This document shows, piece after piece, positions 1-54,561 of a stretch of 64,000 nucleotides of DNA. The notes beneath the pieces are model-generated. The model was given only the letters and a program-made list of their open reading frames with translations, made no database searches and was not told where the DNA came from. Source of the stretch: Lama guanicoe (Eukaryota); the NCBI GenBank assembly GCA_013239625.1, contig MU053823.1:627565-691564 (forward strand). The letters run 5' to 3'. A program made the translations under genes and the position numbers. The first letter of the stretch is position 1, and every line of letters begins with the position of its first letter.

Positions 1-3000
1 GAGAAGATACTACATCCAGAGAAACAGACCTTTCTCAGCATCTTCAAATTCCAGTCCCATCCTTGTTTTCCTCATTTACCTGATGACCAGACCCCATGTT
101 TTTTCAGAAAATAGATTTTGCTAATTTTCATTCCTTACCCTCCCCTCCCCTTTAATCCATCCATTCCTTCTAGAATCCTGCCGATTTTAGAAGTTCCCAT
201 CCTCTCCATCTTATCTCAGCTATGCTTCAGGACACTGTTCCCGTATCATTCCCATTTCCACCTTAAATTTCTCACTCGCTGCTTATCTATCTCTGCTGCC
301 AATGGGATTCTAAAGTACCCGCATCCCCAGGTACTCTCATCCTTCCTCTCCCTCTGCTTCCCATAAGGTACCCTGTCTTTCACTGTCAAAATCCTCCAAA
401 GAGCGATCACTTCCTATTTCTGTTTCTTTCCCTTCCATTCCACATCAACATGTTTCAGAATATCTAGTGGTCCCACATAGAGGTTCAGACCTCCCTATGA
501 AATTACATACCTGCTATTGACAGTAACTTTGGTATGACTGGAATTCTTAATTATTTTATTGAAATAATGATTATCCTCCTATGGCCCAACGCCTGTGAGA
601 AAGTAGGGTTTCCCTGAAAAAAGTGGGTATTCCCAGATCTAGGGAAAAAAGGAGGGTCCTGAAAGAGAAAACAAGAACTCTTCCACAGGTGTAAGGAAAC
701 CTGAACTTGGCACCTTGGGCTTGGAGTTTCGATGTGTTTAAGGACCTTCCCAAGAGGCACAAGGCAAAGCTGGCTTCTGACAAATGGAACTAGGCCAAGT
801 GCTCCTCAGGAAGACAGGTCGGCAGCAAACCACCTCACTTTTAAAAGAGAAAGATCTATTACTCATAACTCTTGTAACATTCTTTCTATCTTCTTTCATC
901 TTAGTCTTTGGAAAGTCTTGCTACAACATTCCAGGCTTATCTCAGCTGTATTAAGCAGGGGATATGGAGCCAGAATTAAAACAGAAGCATTCTGCTTTCT
1001 TCGAGCTCCTTCCCTTAGGCTACACCAAGATGGTAGTTATAGTCTTTGGCAATAATTTTCAAGGAAAACATGTTTTTTTTGCCTGAAAGTTCAAGCACTC
1101 CCCCCCAAATTCCATTGCATCCTCTCTACTGAAGCTTCAGCTGCAAAAAATATAAATGACCTGATTGCAAACTAGTGACTTCCTCAGCTCTAACCCAACT
1201 CAAGCTCTCTTCCTCATTCACACTGTTAACGAGCTCCCCTAACCTCTCCTGGCATCCCCACCATTCTCGAGGTGGTCTTCCCAACCTTCCTAATACCTAA
1301 TCCTACTTCTTTTTCATTGATTCTTCCTCAGTGACTCTTAAATGTCGGGTTTATCTTTGACCAGATTCTCTGTCTTCTCAGCCTTTCCCACCGAAGAAGG
1401 GGACCTCTACGGCTTTCACTCCAAACATTCTTCTCAATTCCAGACCACATTTACAGTTGCCTGCTGTGAAGCTCCACATGGATATCCTGTAAATATCTCA
1501 AGCTCAACATGCCCAAAATTGATCTTCCAAATATGCCTCTGCTCCTCCTCCTCTAACTGATTTGCCACCACCATGTAGTTTAAATTTGGGGGGGGAAAAT
1601 TGCTGGATTTCCCTCTCCTAAAGTACCAATTTTTATTTCTAGCAATTCTGTAAAGAGTTTGGTCATATCCCCACCAAAACTGAATAGTGGTCATTATTTT
1701 TAATTTGTCTAATCTCGTAGATAAAATATTATATCATTTCTGTGTTGATTATGAGTGAAGCAGTGAAAATGTGCGTACATGTGCCTCATGGGTTTGTTGT
1801 AGTTAATAATCTTTGTGTGACCTGCCTCCTCAGAGAAGATACTCACCATTCCTTCAAAAAAGGCAGTGGTCAAAAGTGTTTAGAATAATCTCATCCTTAT
1901 ATACACGAACACATAATGTACTATGCACAGGGAAAATACAGAGCATTACACTAAATGGTTAACTCTAGTAAGATTATAGAGAGCTTTCACTTTACCTGGT
2001 ATATATTTCTCTGGAATAAACTTAAAAAGAGAAAAGAAAAAAAGCATACTTTGTCTTGTAGGAAAAAATAATAGTGAAAAATATTTTTCAGTACAGATCT
2101 GATTATGTCACTGTTATGTTCAAAACTCTTCAGCGATTTGCTGCTTACAGAATAAAATTCATACTGACAAATGAAGCGCTCAGAGCCCTACACAATTCCC
2201 TCTCATTTCTCTCCTCCCCATTCGCTCCCATCTCATCTGGTCACACCTCTGTACCTTCTCATTGTGATTCCCCCTGCCTGAAATATGGTCATTTACATTT
2301 TCTGGCTGTTCCACACCTCCGAGGCCCAGCTCAAACGTACCTCCAGCTGTGCTCTTCCCAAACCTCAGAAACAACGAATCATGCTCTCCTGAGTGCTCAC
2401 CCAGCACCCATTTTTGGTTACAGTTCTACTGTAGGACTAACCATAACCTTGCTGTGTGCTGTAGTTGAGCACACATGTTACTTCCTTGGGGTCCCCTGTT
2501 TCCTCCCAGCACCCAGTACAGGAGCTGCGGGGGTGGAGCGGGGAACGACACCAGGCGATGTCACTAGCGAATACCAGTCTTGTGAACGATGGAAGCATAG
2601 GAGATTTACGGGACTCAGACTCCCATGGTGACACCGCGTAAGACTGTGCTAGGTGTGTGTGCACACCCAGATTACCACTCACAGAAGAGTTTACCCGAAT
2701 GGCACCCCCTCCCCTAACCCAGAAGTGCCTGATTTCCTGTCTTGCAGGGGGGACCTGGTAGGGGGAAGAAAGAAAATTCAGGCAGGAGGAAGGGCTGTGG
2801 TTCGTGCCCAGGAGGGCTTCCTCTTTGAGAAGGTAAGTTGAGAAAGAGCTGAGGGTTTGGCAGTAGTTGCCTTGACAAAGCAGGAGGGAGGGAGATGGGA
2901 GAGAATTGTGTGCTGGCTGAGGTGCAGCACGAGAGAGGGCTTGATGGCTGGAGCCCGGTGCGTGTGTGATCCTGCAAAAACTCCCACGTGGCTGAAGCGC

Positions 3001-4219
3001 AGACGCCAAGGATGAGAAGTGCTGGGCAGTAAGCAGGGACCATAACACACAGGGCCTAATGTGCCAGTTAGAGGGGTGGAACTTAATTCTGAGGACCACA
3101 GAGGGTTAATAGGTTACACTTGAACACAGTAACAGCATGAACACAAATTTAAGGAAGATTACTGTTTGTATTAAAACGAGGAGCTTTCTACACTAATACA
3201 TGGCGATGACTTGAACTGAGGTACCAGCAGGGGGTTCAGAATATCAGGTATCAAAGGGACTCAAAAAGTACATCTAATGCCAGCCTCTGTTTTCAAGGAA
3301 ATTTCCTTGACACGCAGACCTTAAGATATCTTGTTTGATTTTGTTTCTCTGAAACTACAGACGGACAAATAAAACATAGAAATAGTTGTGACAAAGCAGG
3401 GAAAAAAACACAGAACCTGACCTGGGGTATTCATTCAATAAACAAAAGTCCATTTATCAACTATTTCCTATTGGGTCCTCAGCATAATTCTCTGGATACT
3501 GTAGAAAGATGTATTTTTCTGGTTTAAAGCCACTGGGAAGCCTCAATAGATACATTGCTATCTGATCATGGAGAAGCAGATTTCTGTGGGCTGGTGGGCC
3601 TCCCATTAGGATACAATCTTTTAGAAAATATTTCAGCTATTTCTCAGTTTGTTTCTCCAGACAGAAGCAAGGTTACACGCTCATTAGATCAGGTGCTGAC
3701 AATGGTGGCATTTGCTCCTCTTCAGCATTCCTGACCTTGAATTCTATTGCTTTTGGGAGAATAACCTATGTTTATCCACTGCAAGAAGCCTGTGGTTAAC
3801 CTTTCCTTCTCTTTCTCCCATGTTGCAAAGAATTCTTCCTCCTCCCACTTGCAGAGTTTTTCACCGGAAGGTTTCCCCAGGTCTGGGGCATGTTTCTTTT
3901 CATCTGGAATTGCTCCACGTCACTTTCTCTCTCGGGCTCGGCTCTTATCACCAACACTGTGCAGCCATAGATAACACTATAATTTAAGAACAAAAGATAT
4001 TTGGAATGTTGGGCACTTAGACAAGGGGTAATGTCTGGGACAGAGCCTAGGCAAGAAAAGGGGAAAGGTGAGGTAGGTTGATATCTCCAGGCAGTAGGTA
4101 CAGGAGTCCCCACTGAAAGTCCTGTCATTGCCTGGAGACACTGGTTCTTGCTTAGTTCTGGAAACTCTAAGAATTCGATCATCTCCAAGATCCCTTCCAG
4201 TTTTACAATTTTACAATTC

Positions 4220-4400
4220 CTTTTTTAAAAAAGTGAAGTATAGTCAGTTTACAATGTTGTGTCAGTTTCTGGTATACAGCAGGTTTCAATCATACATATA
4301 TATACACATATTCGTTTTCAGATTCCTTTTCATTATAGGTTACTACAAGATATGGAATATATAGTTCCCTGTGCTCTACAGGAGAAACTTGTCTATCTTT
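4220..4400 (-). mobile_element. LINE-1 3' end fragment
   Basis: Antisense L1 3'UTR motifs (gaagtatagtcagttttacaatgttgtg...gttccctgtgctctacag). Confidence 0.75.
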
Positions 4401-5153
4401 ATGATTCTTATTGTAGGATTTGAACAACATATCTATTCACAAAGTTGATTTGTAAAGAGAACTAAATAATTCTTAATTAAAATTAGGATTGAAGACGTGA
4501 GACCCACGGATAAATCTGGAAATAGAAGTTCAATTTCTGGAATTTCCTACAGTTCCTTCAGTAGATTCCTATAAAAATTATCTGAAACGTTAACAACCTT
4601 TTGCCTCTAACTTTTGGCCCCTCTTACAACCCAAACATCAGTAAGGCAAAAGAGTATAAGCTGGGGAATTTGTTTAAGTTGTGCAATGTGTTTTGAAGAA
4701 AATAATTTATTTTTAATATGAGGGATAAAAGAAACAAGAGTTGCAAAACCTAAAAAATACAAATAAACAGAATGCCATTAAGTGTGAATTTCAGATAAAC
4801 AAGGAATACTTTTTGCTAGTATAAATATAACCCATGAAGTGTTTGGGACATAACCTACACCATAAAACTATTTTATATGGCATCCCTAAACAGAGGTAGC
4901 TAAAAGTTCTGTTCCATCTCATAGGCTGTTAAGAAGATTAAATCAGATAAAGTGGAGGAAGCACCTAACACAGTTATCAAATGAAAGTTCTTTTTGCTTT
5001 CTCCTGAGGCTGAGGAATACGACATGATAATTTTCAATTATCCATGTGTAGACTATAAAAAGTTAAATCCCAGTTGCCCTGCATACTTCTGGTTCATTTT
5101 CCCCTGCTGTCCTGTCTTAGCCACAGAAATGAGACAAAAAAAAAAAAAAAAAA

Positions 5154-5227
5154 NNNNNNNNNNNNNNNNNNNNNNNNNNNNNNNNNNNNNNNNNNNNNNN
5201 NNNNNNNNNNNNNNNNNNNNNNNNNNN
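5154..5227. other. Assembly gap within poly(A) tract
   Basis: 74 Ns flanked by A runs. Confidence 0.99.
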
Positions 5228-5234
5228 TAAAACA

Positions 5235-5267
<33 letters not shown>

Positions 5268-6169
5268 AAGAAAGAAAAAATTCTTAGTATTAGATGAAAC
5301 ATATTTAGAAAAGGAAATCTGCTAGCGGATATTGAAGTCATAAACTATTGTGGTTTAGTTATACAACAGCTTCCATGAGCACAAAGAACTGGCTTTATTT
5401 GGGCAGCTTCAGATGTTAGAAAAATTTATCGTATAAAGTGAAAGGCCTGTTACTAACTGTGTGACGTTGGCTGAGTTGTGCTTTAAGGTTTAGATCTGTA
5501 GGATGGTGATTGACAGGCTTGGAGTTTTGGGGAGGATTCAATAGTATATATTAAAGCTCTTTGGAAACTGTAAAGCACAAAGTTGTTACTGTGCTGAGTC
5601 CCACACAGTACAGGAAGTGAGGATTCCTTGAGCCAGAGATCACGCAATGGTTCATCCACAGACAGACTTTCCTCAAAGGCATTTTCCTCTACACAGAGCT
5701 TAGGAACTCAGTGAGTGTCATCTGCCAGTAACACGACTTCATCACTTCCTAGTGATCACTCAACCATCACTCTGGACAGTAGGCAACCCATCTCTGCATC
5801 CTCTTAAGGACAGTTATGTCAATTTCAGTTCCTATTTGTTTTCTGATAACCATTCTCCCCCCACCCCCAAGTGGCTGTATCAGCAGTGCTGGGACCATAA
5901 GAAGAAATCTAAACAGTTTGTGTAATATACTCTTTGATCTGGCTGTCACGTCTTCCTGACCCTAAACCACTATTCCTTCCAGGCCACAAATGCTCCTTCT
6001 TGAAGTACCAGCCTATAAGTTATAATTAATCAGCCATATCATTTTGTATACAATTTTACATTTTTTAGTGCAAAATCTGACAAGTAAAATTCTGACTACT
6101 ATGGTCATATGATTTTTAATCCAGTAGCCTTCAAACTGGGCTATCTTTTGTTTTTTTTAAAGATCCATT

Positions 6170-6580
6170 ATCAAATCCCCCAGGAGAACGGTATATTTGT
6201 TACGGGTGATGAACCTGCACTGGCACATCTTTATCACTTAAAGTCCCTAGTTTACACTGGGGTTTACTCTTGGTGTTGCACATTCTGTGTGTTTGGACAA
6301 ATGTATGATGACTTGCATCTGGCACTATAGTATCATACAGTGTAGTTTCACTGCCTTAAAAATCCTCTGTGCTCCACCGACTCATTCCTCCCTAGCCCTT
6401 CATCCCCCTGCTTAAAAAAAAAATTTATTGAAGTGCATTTGATTTACAATGTTAGTTTCAGGTGTACAGCAAAGTGATTCAGTTATAGGTGTACATACAT
6501 GCATCTATTTTCTTTTCAGATTCTTTTCCATTATATGTTATTACAAGAAACTGAATATAGTTCCCTGTGCTATACAGCTG
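6170..6580 (-). mobile_element. LINE-1 3' end fragments (older L1M plus younger L1)
   Basis: L1 3'UTR antisense motifs (gtatatttgttac..gatgaacct; tcaggtgtacagcaaagtgattcagttat). Confidence 0.7.
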
Positions 6581-6899
6581 GACCTCCTCCATCCATTTTT
6601 AATGAATAATTTTCCAAATCTTCAACACGAAGTATTTGTTTTCCTTCCTAAAATTGTTTTTCTTAACAATGTGCCTGGATTGCTCTTTTTTCTCTTTCCC
6701 ACTTTTCTTTTCACTACTTTCTCCTACTTTCTAAAAGAAGAGTTCACCTCCAACCCATCTTAAGTTTTTACTAAGCTGCACACAATCAGACAGTGCACAG
6801 TCCCTGAGGGAGGGCACGGTGACCGTCAGTGCGACACGGGGTGGGGGCGGGGGGAGTGTTAAAGGCGGGGTGCCCTTCCCCTGCTGCTCAGGGCAGAAC

Positions 6900-7070
6900 C
6901 ATCCACTCATGTGCCACATCAGCCTCTCCTGGGAGCTGGTGAGACGTGAGCATTTTCAGCTCCACTCCAGACCTGCTGGGTCAGACTCTCTGAAGGGCGG
7001 GACCAAGAAATCTGTATTAACAAACCTTCCGAGTGACTCTTAAATGTGCTAAGGTTTTAGAAACATCAAC
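6900..7070. mobile_element. MER5A-like hAT-Charlie DNA transposon remnant
   Basis: Resembles recalled MER5A consensus (cctgggagctggtgaga...ccagacct...cagactct...aatctgtattaacaa). Confidence 0.7.
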
Positions 7071-7859
7071 TGGTAAAGAAACCACCGTAAGCAAAGTTCT
7101 GCAGCATCTGTCTTAGAAGAAAGAAGTAAGACGGTTGGTGGAGGGACAGAAGTTAACACTTTAATCTCAATAAAAAAGAAAGGCTCTTTCTGGCAGAAAA
7201 AGAAGTCTGATTTGGCCTAGTGGTGTGCCCATGAACAGGTTTATAGTTCTATGTAACTGAATGAGCTATGTATTCAAAGTTTAACGAAAAGAAAAAAGGT
7301 CTACAAGGCCATGTGTTTGTATATGTGTGTGTTTGCAGAACAGGGGGAAACGGACCCTGAAATACAGGCCACAACCAGCTGGGGAGCCCTGTTCCTCGGC
7401 CAGAAGGAGAAGCTTTTCTTTGCACAAGGGGACTTGCGTCCCCTGAAGATCTGCCCCACTCTCTTTCCCAGAAGGTTATCTTTCCCTAATTTGCACAAAG
7501 GCACAGGAAAGGCTAACAGTGGCCCTGAAAGCATGTATGTGCTATTCAAGACAGCAGAAATTAATCCCTGAAAGCCATTTAAATATTTTAAAAAATATTT
7601 TAAAAACTTTAAAATGTAAGGGGGGGAAAGTAACAGTTTTTCAAAATGATTTTGTGAGTAAACAAGCCAAAAGGAAGCTCACTGCTCCCGTCTTTCTCTG
7701 GCGCCCAGCCCCTACCCGGCGGCAAGACTGCCAGCGCCTTCCTCTCCCTGGGGGTCCGTCTTTCCGCCTTGCCTTCTTAGACCCCCTCACACCCTATCCT
7801 GAACGGCTGCCTTTCCTCTTACCTTCCTCCTGATCTTTTCCCTAAATGTTCTCAAGTTT

Positions 7860-8200
7860 CTCTTGAGGGCCTCGCCGGTTCCCAGCGAGGACCACGCTTT
7901 CAGGCCTAAGGGAATCCACCAGCCCAGCCCGCGCGTCACTCGCCCGTCACTCGCCCGCCGCGCTGCGCCTCTGCGGGAGCCTCAGCTCCAGGCCCCGCCC
8001 GCCCGCCCGCCCACGGGACTAGGAAGGCGCCCCGAGGACACACACTGCCACCTGGCGGCGGCTGCTGCCGAGGTCCGGCGACACCGGCACGCTCTCGGGC
8101 GACAGGCCTGCGGGCGGATTGGCAAGAGATCTGTCGTGGGTGGAACCGCCAGTGCGAGCTCCCCTGGCTTAAGCAATTGCATTTTCTCTGGCTGGAAACA
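7860..8200 (-). promoter_or_regulatory. CpG island promoter with overlapping GC boxes, CCAAT box and CTCF core motif
   Basis: CpG dense; (cccg)n GC boxes at 7992-8012; ATTGG at 8118-8122; CCGCCAGGTGGCAG on - strand at 8045-8058; downstream - strand donor at 7823. Confidence 0.65.
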
Positions 8201-8699
8201 TCTTTCCAAATCTTTTCCCCTCAAAATCCGTTTCATCTTTCAAAGTCCTGAGTAAACGCCATGATCCCTTTTTTCTGACCTTCTGCGTTAGAGTGTCTCA
8301 CGCCCCGTGGAGTAGGTCCAGCATTTCGTCTGTAATTCTCAGGGAGCGCCACACGGCCTGTTCCAAACCGTTCCTCCTCCTCTAAGTCCCTCAAAGACTC
8401 AGCTCCTCTGAAGCACATGCCACCAGGATATTGCAATCATCGGCTGATCTCCTGGGTCCACCCCCACCCCCGCCCCACCCCCGCCTCCCCATTCCCTGGA
8501 AATTTAAAAGCCTGATTCATCCTCTTGGTTACACAACTCCTGTCATCATTCCTAGTGGCTTCATCATCCATGGAAACAATTCACGCCATGTGCTGGCCTC
8601 TCAGCTCCTTATCCACTCATTTCCAGTCATTCTGTTTTCCAGTCACTTCTCAAGGTGACATCCTCTCTCTGGTCATTCATAACAAAGGCATTCCTTCCA

Positions 8700-9449
8700 N
8701 NNNNNNNNNNNNNNNNNNNNNNNNNNNNNNNNNNNNNNNNNNNNNNNNNNNNNNNNNNNNNNNNNNNNNNNNNNNNNNNNNNNNNNNNNNNNNNNNNNNN
8801 NNNNNNNNNNNNNNNNNNNNNNNNNNNNNNNNNNNNNNNNNNNNNNNNNNNNNNNNNNNNNNNNNNNNNNNNNNNNNNNNNNNNNNNNNNNNNNNNNNNN
8901 NNNNNNNNNNNNNNNNNNNNNNNNNNNNNNNNNNNNNNNNNNNNNNNNNNNNNNNNNNNNNNNNNNNNNNNNNNNNNNNNNNNNNNNNNNNNNNNNNNNN
9001 NNNNNNNNNNNNNNNNNNNNNNNNNNNNNNNNNNNNNNNNNNNNNNNNNNNNNNNNNNNNNNNNNNNNNNNNNNNNNNNNNNNNNNNNNNNNNNNNNNNN
9101 NNNNNNNNNNNNNNNNNNNNNNNNNNNNNNNNNNNNNNNNNNNNNNNNNNNNNNNNNNNNNNNNNNNNNNNNNNNNNNNNNNNNNNNNNNNNNNNNNNNN
9201 NNNNNNNNNNNNNNNNNNNNNNNNNNNNNNNNNNNNNNNNNNNNNNNNNNNNNNNNNNNNNNNNNNNNNNNNNNNNNNNNNNNNNNNNNNNNNNNNNNNN
9301 NNNNNNNNNNNNNNNNNNNNNNNNNNNNNNNNNNNNNNNNNNNNNNNNNNNNNNNNNNNNNNNNNNNNNNNNNNNNNNNNNNNNNNNNNNNNNNNNNNNN
9401 NNNNNNNNNNNNNNNNNNNNNNNNNNNNNNNNNNNNNNNNNNNNNNNNN
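8700..9449. other. Assembly gap
   Basis: 750 Ns. Confidence 0.99.
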
Positions 9450-10154
9450 CCGCCCGCCCGCCCGCCCACGGGACTAGGAAGGCGCCCCGAGGACACACAC
9501 TGCCACCTGGCGGCGGCTGCTGCCGAGGTCCGGCGACACCGGCACGCTCTCGGGCGACAGGCCTGCGGGCGGATTGGCAAGAGATCTGTCGTGGGTGGAA
9601 CCGCCAGTGCGAGCTCCCCTGGCTTAAGCAATTGCATTTTCTCTGGCTGGAAACATCTTTCCAAATCTTTTCCCCTCAAAATCCGTTTCATCTTTCAAAG
9701 TCCTGAGTAAACGCCATGATCCCTTTTTTCTGACCTTCTGCGTTAGAGTGTCTCACGCCCCGTGGAGTAGGTCCAGCATTTCGTCTGTAATTCTCAGGGA
9801 GCGCCACACGGCCTGTTCCAAACCGTTCCTCCTCCTCTAAGTCCCTCAAAGACTCAGCTCCTCTGAAGCACATGCCACCAGGATATTGCAATCATCGGCT
9901 GATCTCCTGGGTCCACCCCCACCCCCGCCCCACCCCCGCCTCCCCATTCCCTGGAAATTAAAAACCCTGATTCATCCTCTTGGTTACACAACTCCTGTCA
10001 TCATTCCTAGTGGCTTCATCATCCATGGAAACAATTCACGCCATGTGCTGGCCTCTCAGCTCCTTATCCACTCATTTCCAGTCATTCTGTTTTCCAGTCA
10101 CTTCTCAAGGTGACATCCTCTCTCTGGTCATTCATAACAAAGGCATTCCTTCCA
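9450..10154 (+). repeat. Near-identical copy of 7995-8699 across the gap (probable false duplication)
   Basis: Offset of exactly 1455; both copies abut the gap; only two substitutions seen. Confidence 0.9.
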
Positions 10155-11074: not shown

Positions 11075-11193
11075 GGGGGGGCAGTTAGTTTTATTTGTTT
11101 CTTTTTTTTTTTTTAATGGAGGTACCGGGGATTGAACCCAGGACCTCATGAATGCGGAGCAGGTGCTCTACCACTGAGCTATGCCCTGCCCCC
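11075..11193 (-). mobile_element. tRNA-Ala-derived SINE (camelid vic-1-like)
   Basis: Pol III A box (tagctcagtgg) and B box (ggttcaatccc) on - strand, with A-rich tail. Confidence 0.85.
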
Positions 11194-11224
11194 TCAAGGT
11201 GTTCATTTAAAACATTCTTGCCTG

Positions 11225-11571
11225 CTTCACAAAGATGGTGCAGAAAGTGAAAGGAGTCCCCGCCCCTCCCAAAGCCAAAGCCAGGAAAGCAGCGCTGAAA
11301 GGCATCCACACACGGGCCTCTGAAGGTGGCCCGATACGCCCGGAAGAACGCCCCCAGGAGGAACAGGCCTCTCGGTGCCAGCAAGTTCCCTCTTACCGGA
11401 GTGCGCCCCGAAGGAGATGGAAGACACGTACTTGTGCTCATTGTGGAGGTCAAGGCCAACAAGCACCAGGTCAAGCCAGCTGCGAAGCAGCAGCAGCAGC
11501 AGGATGCCACCAAAAAGAAGGAGAAGGAGAAGGAAGACAGGGGAGGGGCGGGAGAGAGGGAGCGGCAGTAA
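11225..11571 (+). pseudogene. RPL23A: RPL23A processed pseudogene, internally deleted and 3'-truncated
   Basis: Intronless; MVQKVKGVPAPPKAKARKAALKGIH and YARKNAPRRN..KFPLT..VLIVEVKANKHQVK match RPL23A in two different frames. Confidence 0.88.
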
Positions 11572-11704
11572 AGGAGGATCCCTCAGGTTTCTCCTCTACA
11601 GGCGGTCCTTTCTCTCCCAGTCCCAACCAGTGGTGCCTATTCATCTGTCCTCATCCCTATAATCTTGTCATTTACAAAATGTATATAAATGGGGCCTATC
11701 GTGG

Positions 11705-11960
11705 TTTGCAGTGCCATCACAGAGTGGTATAGACTGGGTGACTTAAACAACACACATTTATTTCTCACAGTTTTGAGGGCTGGAAGTCCAAGATCAGGGT
11801 GCCAGCGTGGGTGGGTTCTAGTTAAGGTCCTTTTCCTGGTTCCCAGATGGCCACCTTCTCACTGTGTCCTCACGTGGCCAAGGGAGAGCAAGCTAGATCT
11901 CTGGGCTCTTCTTATAAAGACCCTGTTCCCATTCATGAGGGCTCCATCCCCGTGACCAAG
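11705..11960. mobile_element. MLT1 (MaLR) LTR fragment
   Basis: agactgggtgacttaaacaac..atttatttctcacagtt..ggctggaagtccaagatcagggtgcc is typical of MLT1. Confidence 0.8.
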
Positions 11961-17829: not shown

Positions 17830-18770
17830 AGCTAGTTTCTCCAGAGCCCCAGGACCCCCTGTCCCTTAGTCCAGCCCAGCTGGGAGTCACCACCCACCTC
17901 CAGCAGAGCCCAGCTCGGAGGCTCGTCCTCCCGCCTGCCGGCCACCGGGACGGCACAGCGCTGCGCACCCTCCACCCGGACCGGGCAACTGCGGTTGGGC
18001 CCAGCGGCTCCACTCAACCGCCCATCTCCGGGACCCCGACGCCGCTCCGCCGGTCCCAGGCCGCCGCGCCCGGGGGTAACAGTGATGGCGCCCCCGCGCT
18101 TCCGCCCGCCCCGCAACGCGGCCGTTAGGACCCCCGCGCAGCTACGAGACGGCCAGGGTTCTGCTTTGAACGATCCGTTGACGCGGGAGTGCAACGTGAC
18201 TCGTGGGTCCGGCTCCCTCCGGACGCAGGACGCAGGCGCCCACCCGCGGCGGGAGCTCGGGTCGCGCTCGCGGGTCCCCCCAACCGCGGCCCCAGCCCCG
18301 CTTCTCACCTTCGCGCCCAACCGCCCGGCGGGGCCGCCGCCCACCCCGCATCCCACCCGGCGCCCCCTGCGGCTTCGCCGGGAGCGCGGGGAACCCTTCA
18401 CGGGGAAACAGCTCTGGGCCCCACCATCCTTAACGCCGCCCTTAAGAGGGTGTTGACGTTTCTGCTTTAAGAGATACCGGTCCCCCTCAACGCCTCCTCG
18501 GCCCGGAGCCGGTGCCCCCAGATATCTCTGCGGGCTGGGCCAGAGTCAGGGCTGAGAAGGCCGAGGCCAGTTTCCAGTAGTTCTTTAGGACCCAGTGGCT
18601 CTTTTCTGATGAAAAGCCCCAGCTGCCTTTCTCTCCACCTCTTGGAAAGGACTCTAAAATTTGGGGTTAGGAGTCATAAATGTCGTCCCCCGCTGCCTGA
18701 TTGGTGCTATTGGGGGAGGGGGGAGGGCAAGCGAGGAAACGGTGTTTGGAGAGATTGCCCGCCTCCCACC
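17830..18770 (-). promoter_or_regulatory. Orphan CpG island with - strand promoter and first-exon donor
   Basis: Strong CpG density at 17900-18530; ATTGG at 18700 and 18709; GC boxes at 18712-18770; donor AAG|GTGAGA at 18309. Confidence 0.6.
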
Positions 18771-21830: not shown

Positions 21831-22367
21831 TCGTTTTCTATGGTGAAAATTTTTATATTTAGAATTGGCCAGCTAGACTCAGTTTAGATGATCCTAATTT
21901 TGCTGGCAGCATCTAAAGCATCATAGTCAGGAGCCAGTCGTACATATGCCTTCTTCTCTCCATCAGGCCTGCTCAGGGTGTTGATCTTAACTACATCAGT
22001 GTCATAGAGCTTCTTCATAGCCTGTTTGATCTGGTGCTTTTTGGCCTTGACATCCACAATGAACACAAGTGTGTTGCTGTCTTCTGTCTTCTTCATTGTT
22101 GACTCGGTGCTCAGGGGGAACTTGATGATGGCTAGTGGTCAAGCTGGTTTCTCCTAGGGAAGCTTTTCCGGGGGTTTTTGGGCTGCCTTCTGAGCTGCAG
22201 TGTTTTGGGCTGTCAGAAGTTGGGTGACGCCCGGATCTTCTTTTTTTGTGGCTGTGGTTGCCTCTCAGCACTGCTTTCTTGGCCTTCAAAGCCCTTGCTT
22301 TGACTTCAGCTTTGGGAGGGGCGGGGACTTCTGTCTTTGCTTTATGTGCAGTCTTAGTGAAAAGTCA
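21831..22367 (-). pseudogene. RPL23A: RPL23A processed pseudogene, full length with frameshifts
   Basis: KAKKAVLRG.HSHKK and [44 protein letters not shown]; UTRs and decayed poly(A) present; 11-bp TSD ACCTCCTTTTT at 21820-21830 and 22368-22378. Confidence 0.95.
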
Positions 22368-22817: not shown

Positions 22818-23530
22818 TTTTTTTGAAGGTTCCAATGTGTTTTTATTGATTAGAATTGTATATCGTTGTAATCCTTCCATCATACATATAAAATATAGTA
22901 ATAACCAAATATCTGATACTAAAATAACTTACTGACAAGTTCTACTATTGAACGCAGAATAGTTCTCTCTCTCTTAACAATTAAAGAAAGAAGAAAGAAA
23001 GAAGAAAGGAAGGAAGGAAGGAAGGAAGGAAGGAAGGAAGGAAGGAAGGAAGAAAGGAAGAAAGGAAGGAAGGAAGAAAGAAAGAAAGAAACCACTGAGT
23101 TTATCTTGGAAAATTTAAATTCTGGCCATTATTTTACAAGTCGGCAATCTGAGTAATTCAGCTTGAAGATGACTTTCTCCTTGTAGACGTCTGCTCGTCC
23201 ACGTGCGATCTGGGACCTCCTCGGGTCGCAAGCTTTTTCTGCATATGATGGACTTTGGAGACGGGACCTCGCAATTGTCCTCGCCTTGAGCCCTGGTCAA
23301 AGTTCCATATTCAGCCAATCCCAGTTTTTTACTTTCAGCCAGAGTATATTTGCAGAAAAACGCCCCTTGTACCTTACCAAAAATGTCATAATCCACTGAT
23401 ATCAGGGTGTCCCCTTCTGCCTCGCTCATGCTCACACGCTCCTGGTCCTCCTCCCACGCGGCGGGGACTCCCGGGCCACCACCACGCCAACGGTTCCCCC
23501 AGCCGCGTAACCGCTGCGCCCGGAAGCTCA
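22818..23530 (-). pseudogene. ACYP1: ACYP1 (acylphosphatase 1) processed pseudogene
   Basis: ATG at 23429: MSEAEGDTLISVDYDIFGKVQG..KKLGL, then frameshifted GQLRGPVSKV.HMQ; original stop at 23131-23129; catalytic Arg changed to Cys; AATAAA at about 22848-22843 plus A tail; GC-rich 5'UTR retained. Confidence 0.92.
22984..23090 (+). repeat. (GAAA)n/(GGAA)n microsatellite inside the ACYP1 retrocopy 3'UTR
   Basis: Direct inspection. Confidence 0.95.
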
Positions 23531-24109
23531 GACAAAACAATTCTCGACAAAAATTTTAACACCTCCCTCCTCCCTCGCCCCCGCCCACCAACTTTGGCAC
23601 AAGCAACATACATCTTATTATGCTAGGACTGTTACTGCTTAGTCGTAATTTTCCCGTGGTACTTTTATTACTGCAAATACAGCTGCCTCCTGTTCCTCCC
23701 CTTCTTTCTCCAAAATGGTCATCATGATACTGAAGGGCCAGCATAATATTGTTCCCTGTTAACTATCTGACCGAGATAAGCCAGAAAAATTATAAGAAGA
23801 TGGGATAAACAGAAGGTACCTGCTGCTGAATCTTGACCAATAGGCCTGGCGGGCTCTTGCAGTGGGGATAGTTACACTACCGCCGGGAAGTCCTGGTATT
23901 CCTTCAATTTTAGAGCGCAATTTTCAGACAATGTTAGTTTTAAGAAAATGTCTGGACTAGAAGAAATATATATACATTTGTCCCGAGAAGCAAGCAATTA
24001 TGGATTCCATAATTTATACAGTGTAGATGGTATCTCTCAGCACTCTCAAATAGTAAGTTCTTCCTACTCTGGAATCACAGATTGTAGGTTAAAAACACCT
24101 TACTCCCCC

Positions 24110-37964: not shown

Positions 37965-38297
37965 ATGGCTTCTGACCTAGAAAGTAGCCTCACCTCCATA
38001 GACTGGCTCCCCCAGCTGACCCTCCGAGCGACCATTGAGAAGCTTGGGAGTGCCTCCCAGGCTGGGCCTCCAGGCGGCAGCCGCAAATGTCCACCAGGCT
38101 CACCCACGGATCCTAATGCCACCCTGAGCAAAGACGAGGCAGCGGTCCACCAGGATGGCAAACCCCGCTACAGCTATGCCACCCTCATCACCTATGCCAT
38201 CAACTCCTCCCCAGCCAAGAAGATGACCCTCAGTGAGATTTACCGCTGGATCTGTGATAACTTCCCCTATTACAAGAATGCTGGCATTGGTTGGAAG
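37965..38297 (+). CDS. FOXJ2: FOXJ2 exon 2 coding part (exon starts 37951)
   Basis: Kozak caccATGg; [29 protein letters not shown]; donor gtggga. Confidence 0.97.
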
Positions 38298-53106: not shown

Positions 53107-54561
53107 TCACACAACTGTACTGATACTCTTCGTTCCCCAAGAGACTTTGTTTTGGGAACAGCTAGTAGAACGTGTCAAGTCCTCACTGAAAGCTGCCTCC
53201 AGAATTCCCTGCATGGACTGCTTTGCTTTTTTCCTAAAATCTTTCCCCAGGAGGGCATAAAGAAAGGGATTGAAGCAACTATTGGCAGATGCTAGAGCAA
53301 GAGACACATGGTCCCAGGTCAACAGAGCTACCCCAAAGGGAGTTTCTGGGTCAATAAACAATAACAGGACCCCAAAAATGTGGTATGGAGCCCAGCAGAC
53401 AAGGAAGACAACCACCACCACCACTGCCACTTTCAAGATTTTGCTCCGAGATTTGAAGCGGCCCTGTCGCATTCGGAAGAGAATAAGGCTGTAACAGGCC
53501 ACCATGACAATGAACGGCAGCAGGAAACCCGCCACCAGCCTAGTGACGGTTATTGCTACCTGGGGTCTTGGCACTCGATGGACATACACAAATTGGCCTA
53601 AATAATCATCATCTTGGAAATCTTGGGATAGGTCAGATGTGTGTAAGGAATTGCTGGAGGCACTATAGAAAAGCTCTAAATCAGTAGGGGAAAAAGCATC
53701 AGAGTGTCCCAGCTGGTTAGCTCTGTGATCTTCAACGGGAAACTCACTGGCGATTGCAGGCGAGACCTTGTCAGCAGGTTTAAATGAACCGTAGTATGGA
53801 TGTTGAACAGGTAATCCAGCTGAATCCGTAGGGAATGGATCTCCAGAAGGTCTTTGAGATATTTGAGAATGGAGGCCACTGGCGGCTGTCCAAGACTGGT
53901 CATTTGTTTGTAGAGAGAAAGAACTGAATCTACCATCCATTTCTCCAGGGTGCTCAACAGTGGAGTTTTTAAGAGACCAGTTTTCCAGTAGATCTAAGAT
54001 GAAGTCTGAATCATCTAATGAGCTGTAGGAACCAAAATTGTAGCCACACATGTTATGGTCACCTACAGAGAACGTTTCCCGGTATATGAACACAGGTATA
54101 CACATTACAAAAGCCATCACCCAGATGCAGCCACAGATGGCGGAGGCTGTGCCTACGTTGCGATGATTCTGGCACCAGACTGGCCTCAGTACCAAAAGGC
54201 AGCGGTCTAGGCTAATGGCCATCAGCAGGAAGACGCTGGCAAACATGTTGAGGATGATGATGGATGGGATGAGTTTGCATAGGAACCAGCCGTAGGGCCA
54301 GTGTCCTTGGAGAGCCAAGTGAACCAGGGAGAAGGGCAAGGAGAGGCAGCAGAGAAAGTCGGCCAGGGTGAGATGGAGAAACCAAACTGTGTTCACTGTG
54401 CGTTGCATCTTTAGGCCAGTCACCCACAGCACCAGCCCGTTGCCTGGCAATCCCAGCAAGAAAGTGAAGCCCAGAATGACCATGGGCAGAATTACGTGGG
54501 GTTTATTCCAGGGCTGTGAGGGGAGGTCAGTTGAATTGGTCTCAGCAGAGAAAGACTCCAT
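53107..54561 (-). CDS. C3AR1: C3a anaphylatoxin chemotactic receptor (class A GPCR), 484 aa
   Basis: Starts [13 protein letters not shown]; 7 TM segments; SLDRC motif; very long ECL2; NPFLY; single coding exon with acceptor at 54571. Confidence 0.98.

Follow-up and report, generated by a model that had tools for sequence, protein, structure and literature searches.

The minus strand of a 64,000-nucleotide stretch of the Lama guanicoe genome (assembly GCA_013239625.1, contig MU053823.1, positions 627,565 to 691,564; hereafter the window, in whose own numbering all positions are given) may carry a predicted RNA polymerase II non-coding unit, either a long non-coding RNA (lncRNA) or an upstream leader, a reading to which we give about an even chance. 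A first-pass annotation had instead read the same interval as a unitary pseudogene of a lost protein-coding gene. We favour the non-coding unit because the splice donor at 7823 and the acceptor at 658 rank first in the region and the donor at 511 second, with both of the exons that they delimit free of ATG, and because the chain of peptides lying between them stays at chance level, has no codon-usage signal and no intact homologue, and includes a candidate exon (B) whose frame is broken in another mammal.

In the proposed unit, a CpG island at about 7.7-8.2 kb would drive a minus-strand transcript, whose ATG-free first exon would splice at 7823, most simply to an exon at 658-511. From there the transcript would either end at the AATAAA at 560-555, yielding a short lncRNA, or it would splice on at 511 and leave the window in the direction where SLC2A3 is expected, serving as a non-coding leader. 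The intervening segments would then be old intergenic DNA whose splice sites are weak or cryptic, and their peptides would form a fitted chain rather than a demonstrated relic protein.

Promoter, likely first exon and the exon at 658-511

7680-8160, minus strand: CpG-island promoter (GC 0.67, CpG observed/expected 0.84; motif scan)
7823-8140, minus strand: likely first exon, ending at a strong donor (rank 1/414); no ATG
511-658, minus strand: 148-nt ATG-free exon, either internal or a composite last exon, containing AATAAA at 560-555 (best acceptor plus second-best donor)
17830-18560, minus strand: second CpG island with a minus-strand donor at 18309 (GC 0.72, observed/expected 0.89; donor score 6.4)
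9450-10154, no strand assigned: second copy of 7995-8699 (705 nt, 2 differences) across the N gap 8700-9449 (750 N)

The promoter described in the first-pass annotation is well borne out, as the island at 7680-8160 contains three GC boxes (8117, 8012 and 8004) and a CCAAT motif (8122), along with TGACG motifs at 7949 and 7938. Splice sites were ranked with approximate splice matrices over the minus strand of 500-8200, which holds 414 GT and 588 AG sites. On this scale the donor at 7823, already singled out as a strong first-exon donor, takes first place; it lies where a first-exon donor is expected, on the downstream border of the island, and no ATG occurs on the minus strand between 8182 and 7578. 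The second island, which adjoins no known gene, repeats this pattern with a strong donor on the same strand and may represent a further upstream first exon of the same system, towards SLC2A3. A promoter coupled to a first-exon donor, as befits a lncRNA or a leader, is thus found at the level of sequence features. The 705-nt segment that is duplicated around the gap includes the upstream half of the first island, and this duplication is probably an assembly artefact, arising from both haplotypes or from a contig overlap.

At the other end of the unit, the acceptor at 658 ranks first of the 588 AG sites and the AATAAA is present at 560-555, both as previously noted. That 658 opens a terminal exon is less clear, as a donor at 511, second in rank within the region, was missed at the time and follows 44 nt after the AATAAA. 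Since this donor is strong, 658-511 also makes a complete internal exon and is possibly internal rather than terminal. With a score of 16.4 it forms the best acceptor and donor pair on the minus strand of 1-30000. Among 148-nt windows matched for size and GC content, 223 of 3421 are likewise ATG-free. Coding capacity, which neither a lncRNA nor a leader should have, is lacking: stops fall in all three frames of the chain, the first exon and the exon at 658-511 contain no ATG and no Rfam family applies, the only Rfam match across 1-30000 being a tRNA-like SINE head at 11117-11186.

As to expression, four RNA runs from one study (labelled reproductive system) contain 27-34% of 792 words sampled from the stretch and six runs of unstated kind contain 85-94%, while ten further runs, with word shares of 0.13-0.19, were not counted as evidence. 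Because the proposed exons cover about 15% of the stretch, the RNA share must include other sequence, be it unspliced RNA, other exons, repeats or DNA. The suggestion of the first-pass annotation that the locus is possibly still transcribed as a lncRNA survives to the extent that a promoter-driven, probably spliced non-coding minus-strand unit is plausible.

The candidate exon chain

5590-5802, minus strand: candidate exon A (composition in the top 0.6% of windows; weak splice sites, acceptor 154/588, donor 113/414; two stops; no homologue)
4965-5052, minus strand: candidate exon B, old alignable DNA (composition unremarkable; frame not kept in another mammal)
4508-4568, minus strand: candidate exon C (weak splice sites, one stop)
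3801-3976, minus strand: candidate exon D, purine-rich (composition in the top 0.9% of windows; one stop; no Pfam family)
3422-3498, minus strand: candidate exon E (fair splice sites, acceptor 30/588 and donor 7/414; two stops)
3355-3421, minus strand: 67-nt pyrimidine-rich GT-AG intron candidate (purine fraction 0.30)
3320-3354, minus strand: candidate exon F, 35 nt (returned by the chain search at one of two settings)

The alternative that survives best is an ancient unitary pseudogene, that is, a gene of some 250 codons from an unrecognised family that died before camelids split from the mammal carrying P0006, a protein match described below. Exons A and D, perhaps with E, F and the 67-nt intron, would be relics of this gene, and a non-coding RNA would still use its promoter and last exon. 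We consider such an origin possible but doubtful. All four peptides of the first-pass annotation, with their AG/GT ends and phases (5802-5590, from 5052, 4568-4508 and from 3976), were confirmed, and the short GT-AG intron is also present, with bounds of 3421-3355 (67 nt) rather than 3421-3356. Once completed, the chain consists of A-F and the last exon from 658, seven phase-consistent exons of 252 codons in total, interrupted by six stops (4 TGA, 2 TAG) and closed by a TAA that overlaps the AATAAA. That the chain keeps its phase as far as this closing stop, which lies in the last exon, speaks for a pseudogene, as does an in-frame ATG in strong context near the start of A and thus just inside the second exon; an out-of-frame ATG precedes it. 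The introns joining A to D (537, 396 and 531 nt) are all multiples of three, so that the four peptides share a single genomic frame. The internal splice sites are mostly weak (acceptors of A-E 29-154 of 588, donors of A-C 49-154 of 414), and only the donor of E, at rank 7, stands higher. Regarding the MIR and L1 remnants previously placed in the introns, interspersed-repeat copies, putatively L1, do lie at 4234-4398 and 6424-6577. Unlike these repeats, exons A-F each occur only once in the window.

A chain of this kind is easily obtained. When sites as weak as those used here were allowed, all 24 control stretches of 2.5 kb yielded a better-scoring six-exon phase-consistent chain under a length-versus-stop score, and phase consistency was therefore rejected as evidence. 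In a gene-finder-like search the region was outscored by 11 or 8 of 27 controls, depending on which of two settings was used; at one of the two the search returned E and F exactly, a point in favour of a pseudogene. By codon usage, 54% of background stretches score as high as the chain, with a weak training set of one gene, and this argument was set aside as well. The six stops of the chain compare with 12.8 expected (P=0.026 before allowing for frame choice), and each of the chain's three frames contains 7-22 stops. The exon chain and its disablements are not above chance and do not single out a unitary pseudogene. The argument from stop type, according to which TGA and TAG lie one C>T step from CGA and CAG, is weak, as TAA is likewise one C>T step from CAA. 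The absence of TAA among the six stops, with P=0.053 on background and about 0.2 under simulated decay, still favours decay about threefold.

Amino-acid composition gives a pseudogene further support. The two highest coding-like peaks are those of A and D, whereas B, C, E, F and the last exon do not stand out in this respect. The summed score of A and D is matched by 1 of 31 controls and by none of 300 Markov resamples. The top peak on its own is matched by 5 of the 31. Peak A begins at an AG acceptor, and in D a second frame scores 6.9 against 9.4 for the frame of the chain. The figure of 1 in 31 overstates the significance because the region was chosen by eye.

How a pseudogene should look by now can be gauged from a simulation of neutral decay over 251 codons, with 40 runs per divergence level. 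No run at 0.1 substitutions per site accumulated six or more stops, compared with 5 of 40 at 0.2 and 16 of 40 at 0.3. Six stops thus imply about 0.2-0.3 substitutions per site, at which about 6-30 frameshifts would be expected in 650 nt (assuming rates of 0.05-0.16 per substitution), but the chain has none. An old pseudogene should not read through so cleanly, which leaves two options: a fitted chain, or true frames other than the ones read here.

Relatives, catalogues and known counterparts

The homology searches likewise argue against a pseudogene. When the read-through of A-C was searched with phmmer against 1.84 billion representatives, drawn from a protein collection that includes annotated vertebrate and camelid proteins, no intact relative was found and there was a single match (E 5e-17), P0006, an unnamed singleton on a 1349-nt contig. 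P0006 matches exon B and its flanking intron in all three frames, so it appears to be a spurious open reading frame (ORF) that another mammal carries in the corresponding DNA. When residues 1-95 of P0006 were aligned with frameshifts allowed, 65 of 87 positions were identical and the frame switched six times, twice in the 88 nt of exon B and four times in about 195 nt outside, which is the same density; identity is 21/26 inside exon B versus 44/61 outside. P0006 has His just after the donor position, suggesting that it does not keep the GT donor of exon B. To judge from this one exon compared with one other mammal, exon B is not more frame-protected than its flanks.

In a calibration with mutated copies, phmmer found 100 of 100 at 60% identity, 88-96 at 50%, 45-68 at 40% and 5-10 at 30%, and a gene dead for over 80 million years could lie below detection in these searches. 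A word-based search of 5.8 billion proteins returned nothing for exon A, either at 124-2000 or at 38-123 amino acids, and for residues 1-60 of P0006 it returned only P0006 itself. Exons A-E, the last exon and P0006 gave no Pfam family. PDB gave no match for exon A. For exons D-F the searches were confined to Pfam or PDB, D being searched in Pfam only and F, which is too short, in neither. Exon E drew only six designed repeat proteins from PDB, an artefact of summed 5-bit pieces, and a suspected likeness of E to HORMA-domain strands found no support there. Pattern searches yielded 353 matches in JGI metagenomes and 8 in viral contigs, none of them confirmed, and a degenerate motif common with P0006 yielded 0 matches in the metagenomes. 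The claim of a unitary pseudogene of a lost protein gene thus lacks any homologue for A-C, and Pfam assigns neither A-E nor the last exon to a family. We nevertheless retain an ancient pseudogene as a possibility because of the coding-like composition of A and D, and because D was searched in Pfam only.

No described gene for the interval was found in the literature covered, with subscription papers lying outside that coverage. The supplements of Hezroni et al., 2017 (PMC5577775) contain 0 occurrences of FOXJ2, SLC2A3, SLC2A14 or C3AR1, and six rows anchored on NECAP1 lie elsewhere; the comparison with the conserved human lncRNAs of that study covered some coordinate prefixes. One supplement of PMC10195156 likewise contains 0 occurrences of the interval. 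PhyloCSF, named as a check by the first-pass annotation, lends no support either, as no row of Data S1 of Mudge et al., 2019 (PMC6886504; files other than 1 and 8 searched) falls in the human interval, chr12 at about 7.94-8.03 Mb. Absence from two gene-loss catalogues and from this reviewed PhyloCSF list argues against a pseudogene. In the portions available, PMC9664204, PMC3894937, PMC4520476, bioRxiv 10.1101/2024.12.21.628413, PMC5487954, PMC10110494 and PMC6453668 have no bearing on the interval.

Similarity of a lncRNA to the lost gene from which it derives is reported to be rare, amounting to 11 human pairs or about 20% of the excess pairs (Hezroni et al., 2017), so that missing homology alone does not exclude a lost-gene origin. 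Like the lncRNAs derived from lost coding genes described there, the unit proposed here would be non-coding, intergenic and made of several exons, in a syntenic position. However, such cases presuppose a protein-coding gene in the corresponding position of a reference species, and here none is known. Similarly, the unitary pseudogenes recognised by PhyloCSF, as far as their account is accessible (Mudge et al., 2019), share with our chain exon-shaped segments with stops in an unannotated interval, but they differ in showing a coding signature across species and in having an intact ortholog. The unit also resembles CpG-island lncRNAs and distal first exons, with which it shares an island, GC boxes, a strong first donor, ATG-free exons and a direction towards the expected SLC2A3 side. 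In contrast to established cases, its junctions and its link to SLC2A3 are putative.

Locus setting and competing readings

C3AR1 lies at 53110-54561 on the minus strand and clusters with Camelus proteins; it has 484 amino acids, against the 483 of the named full-length Camelus proteins in that cluster. A forkhead exon at 37965-38297, whose Pfam Forkhead match served as the positive control of the Pfam search, belongs to what is probably FOXJ2, given the gene order beside C3AR1. The SINE head at 11117-11186 (Rfam tRNA) is tRNA-derived and stands beside a lysine/alanine-rich ORF, which resembles a ribosomal-protein L29 retrocopy, the whole feature spanning 11117-11732. Two further minus-strand segments presumably are a frameshifted retrocopy resembling RPL23A (21884-22364) and a decayed retrocopy resembling acylphosphatase ACYP1 (23115-23555). 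The placement between SLC2A3 and FOXJ2 given by the first-pass annotation probably holds on the FOXJ2 side, where the forkhead exon and C3AR1 are in the window, but SLC2A3 was not seen there: the ORF list of the window contains no match, no direct search having been made. The placement thus rests on synteny, as in duck (PMC13718420). The duck gene table, in the part available, lists no gene between SLC2A3 and FOXJ2 (PMC13718420), which argues against a pseudogene.

Several points weigh against the non-coding unit. Apart from the coding-like peaks of A and D, the splice matrices are crude, and the best plus-strand pair scores 16.2, so the minus-strand pair at 16.4 is not unique. The RNA runs amount to word shares from one study that may be DNA carry-over, and they give no junction, strand or start. 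Finally, a long upstream SLC2A3 leader may exist in human and mouse, but our literature searches gave no paper that describes it.

Some of these points would also suit a locus with no stable transcript, at which an orphan promoter or enhancer of the NANOG-SLC2A3-FOXJ2 region is surrounded by splice signals that arose by chance in repeat-rich DNA. The equally strong exon-like pairs on the plus strand fit this proposal, and an RNA share well above the exon cover is what unspliced RNA or DNA would give. In the mouse, moreover, the accessible part of one study places in this neighbourhood a super-enhancer contacting Slc2a3 and Foxj2 (PMC9019034). The position of the best donor at the downstream edge of the island speaks against chance signals, as does the recurrence of the same arrangement, on the same strand, at the second island, and we regard the absence of a stable transcript as unlikely. 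It is very improbable that a gene intact and annotated in other mammals was lost recently in camelids alone, or left an unprocessed duplicate here, for although stops without frameshifts would suit a short decay, six are too many for it (none of the 40 runs at 0.1 substitutions per site reached that number), an ortholog of 60% identity would have been detected in 100 of 100 trials and none was found, and the frame is also missing in another mammal, which largely refutes such a loss for exons A-C.

The locus is probably an ordinary class of non-coding unit, and a pseudogene is unproven, the defining tests of it that could be run having turned out negative. As such, the non-coding unit would carry little weight beyond camelid annotation. 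If it is a distal promoter feeding SLC2A3, it would bear on the regulation of GLUT3 in reproductive tissue. It is also conceivable, though we hold this only tentatively, that the locus preserves the fossil of a protein of some 250 residues, from a family without a known member, that disappeared from the NANOG-SLC2A3-FOXJ2 pluripotency cluster early in the evolution of placentals, and that its promoter and last exon were recycled into a reproductive-tissue RNA or a leader of SLC2A3. Should an outgroup ortholog be found, it would reveal a gene loss missed by the catalogues at a much-studied pluripotency locus, and with it a new protein family.

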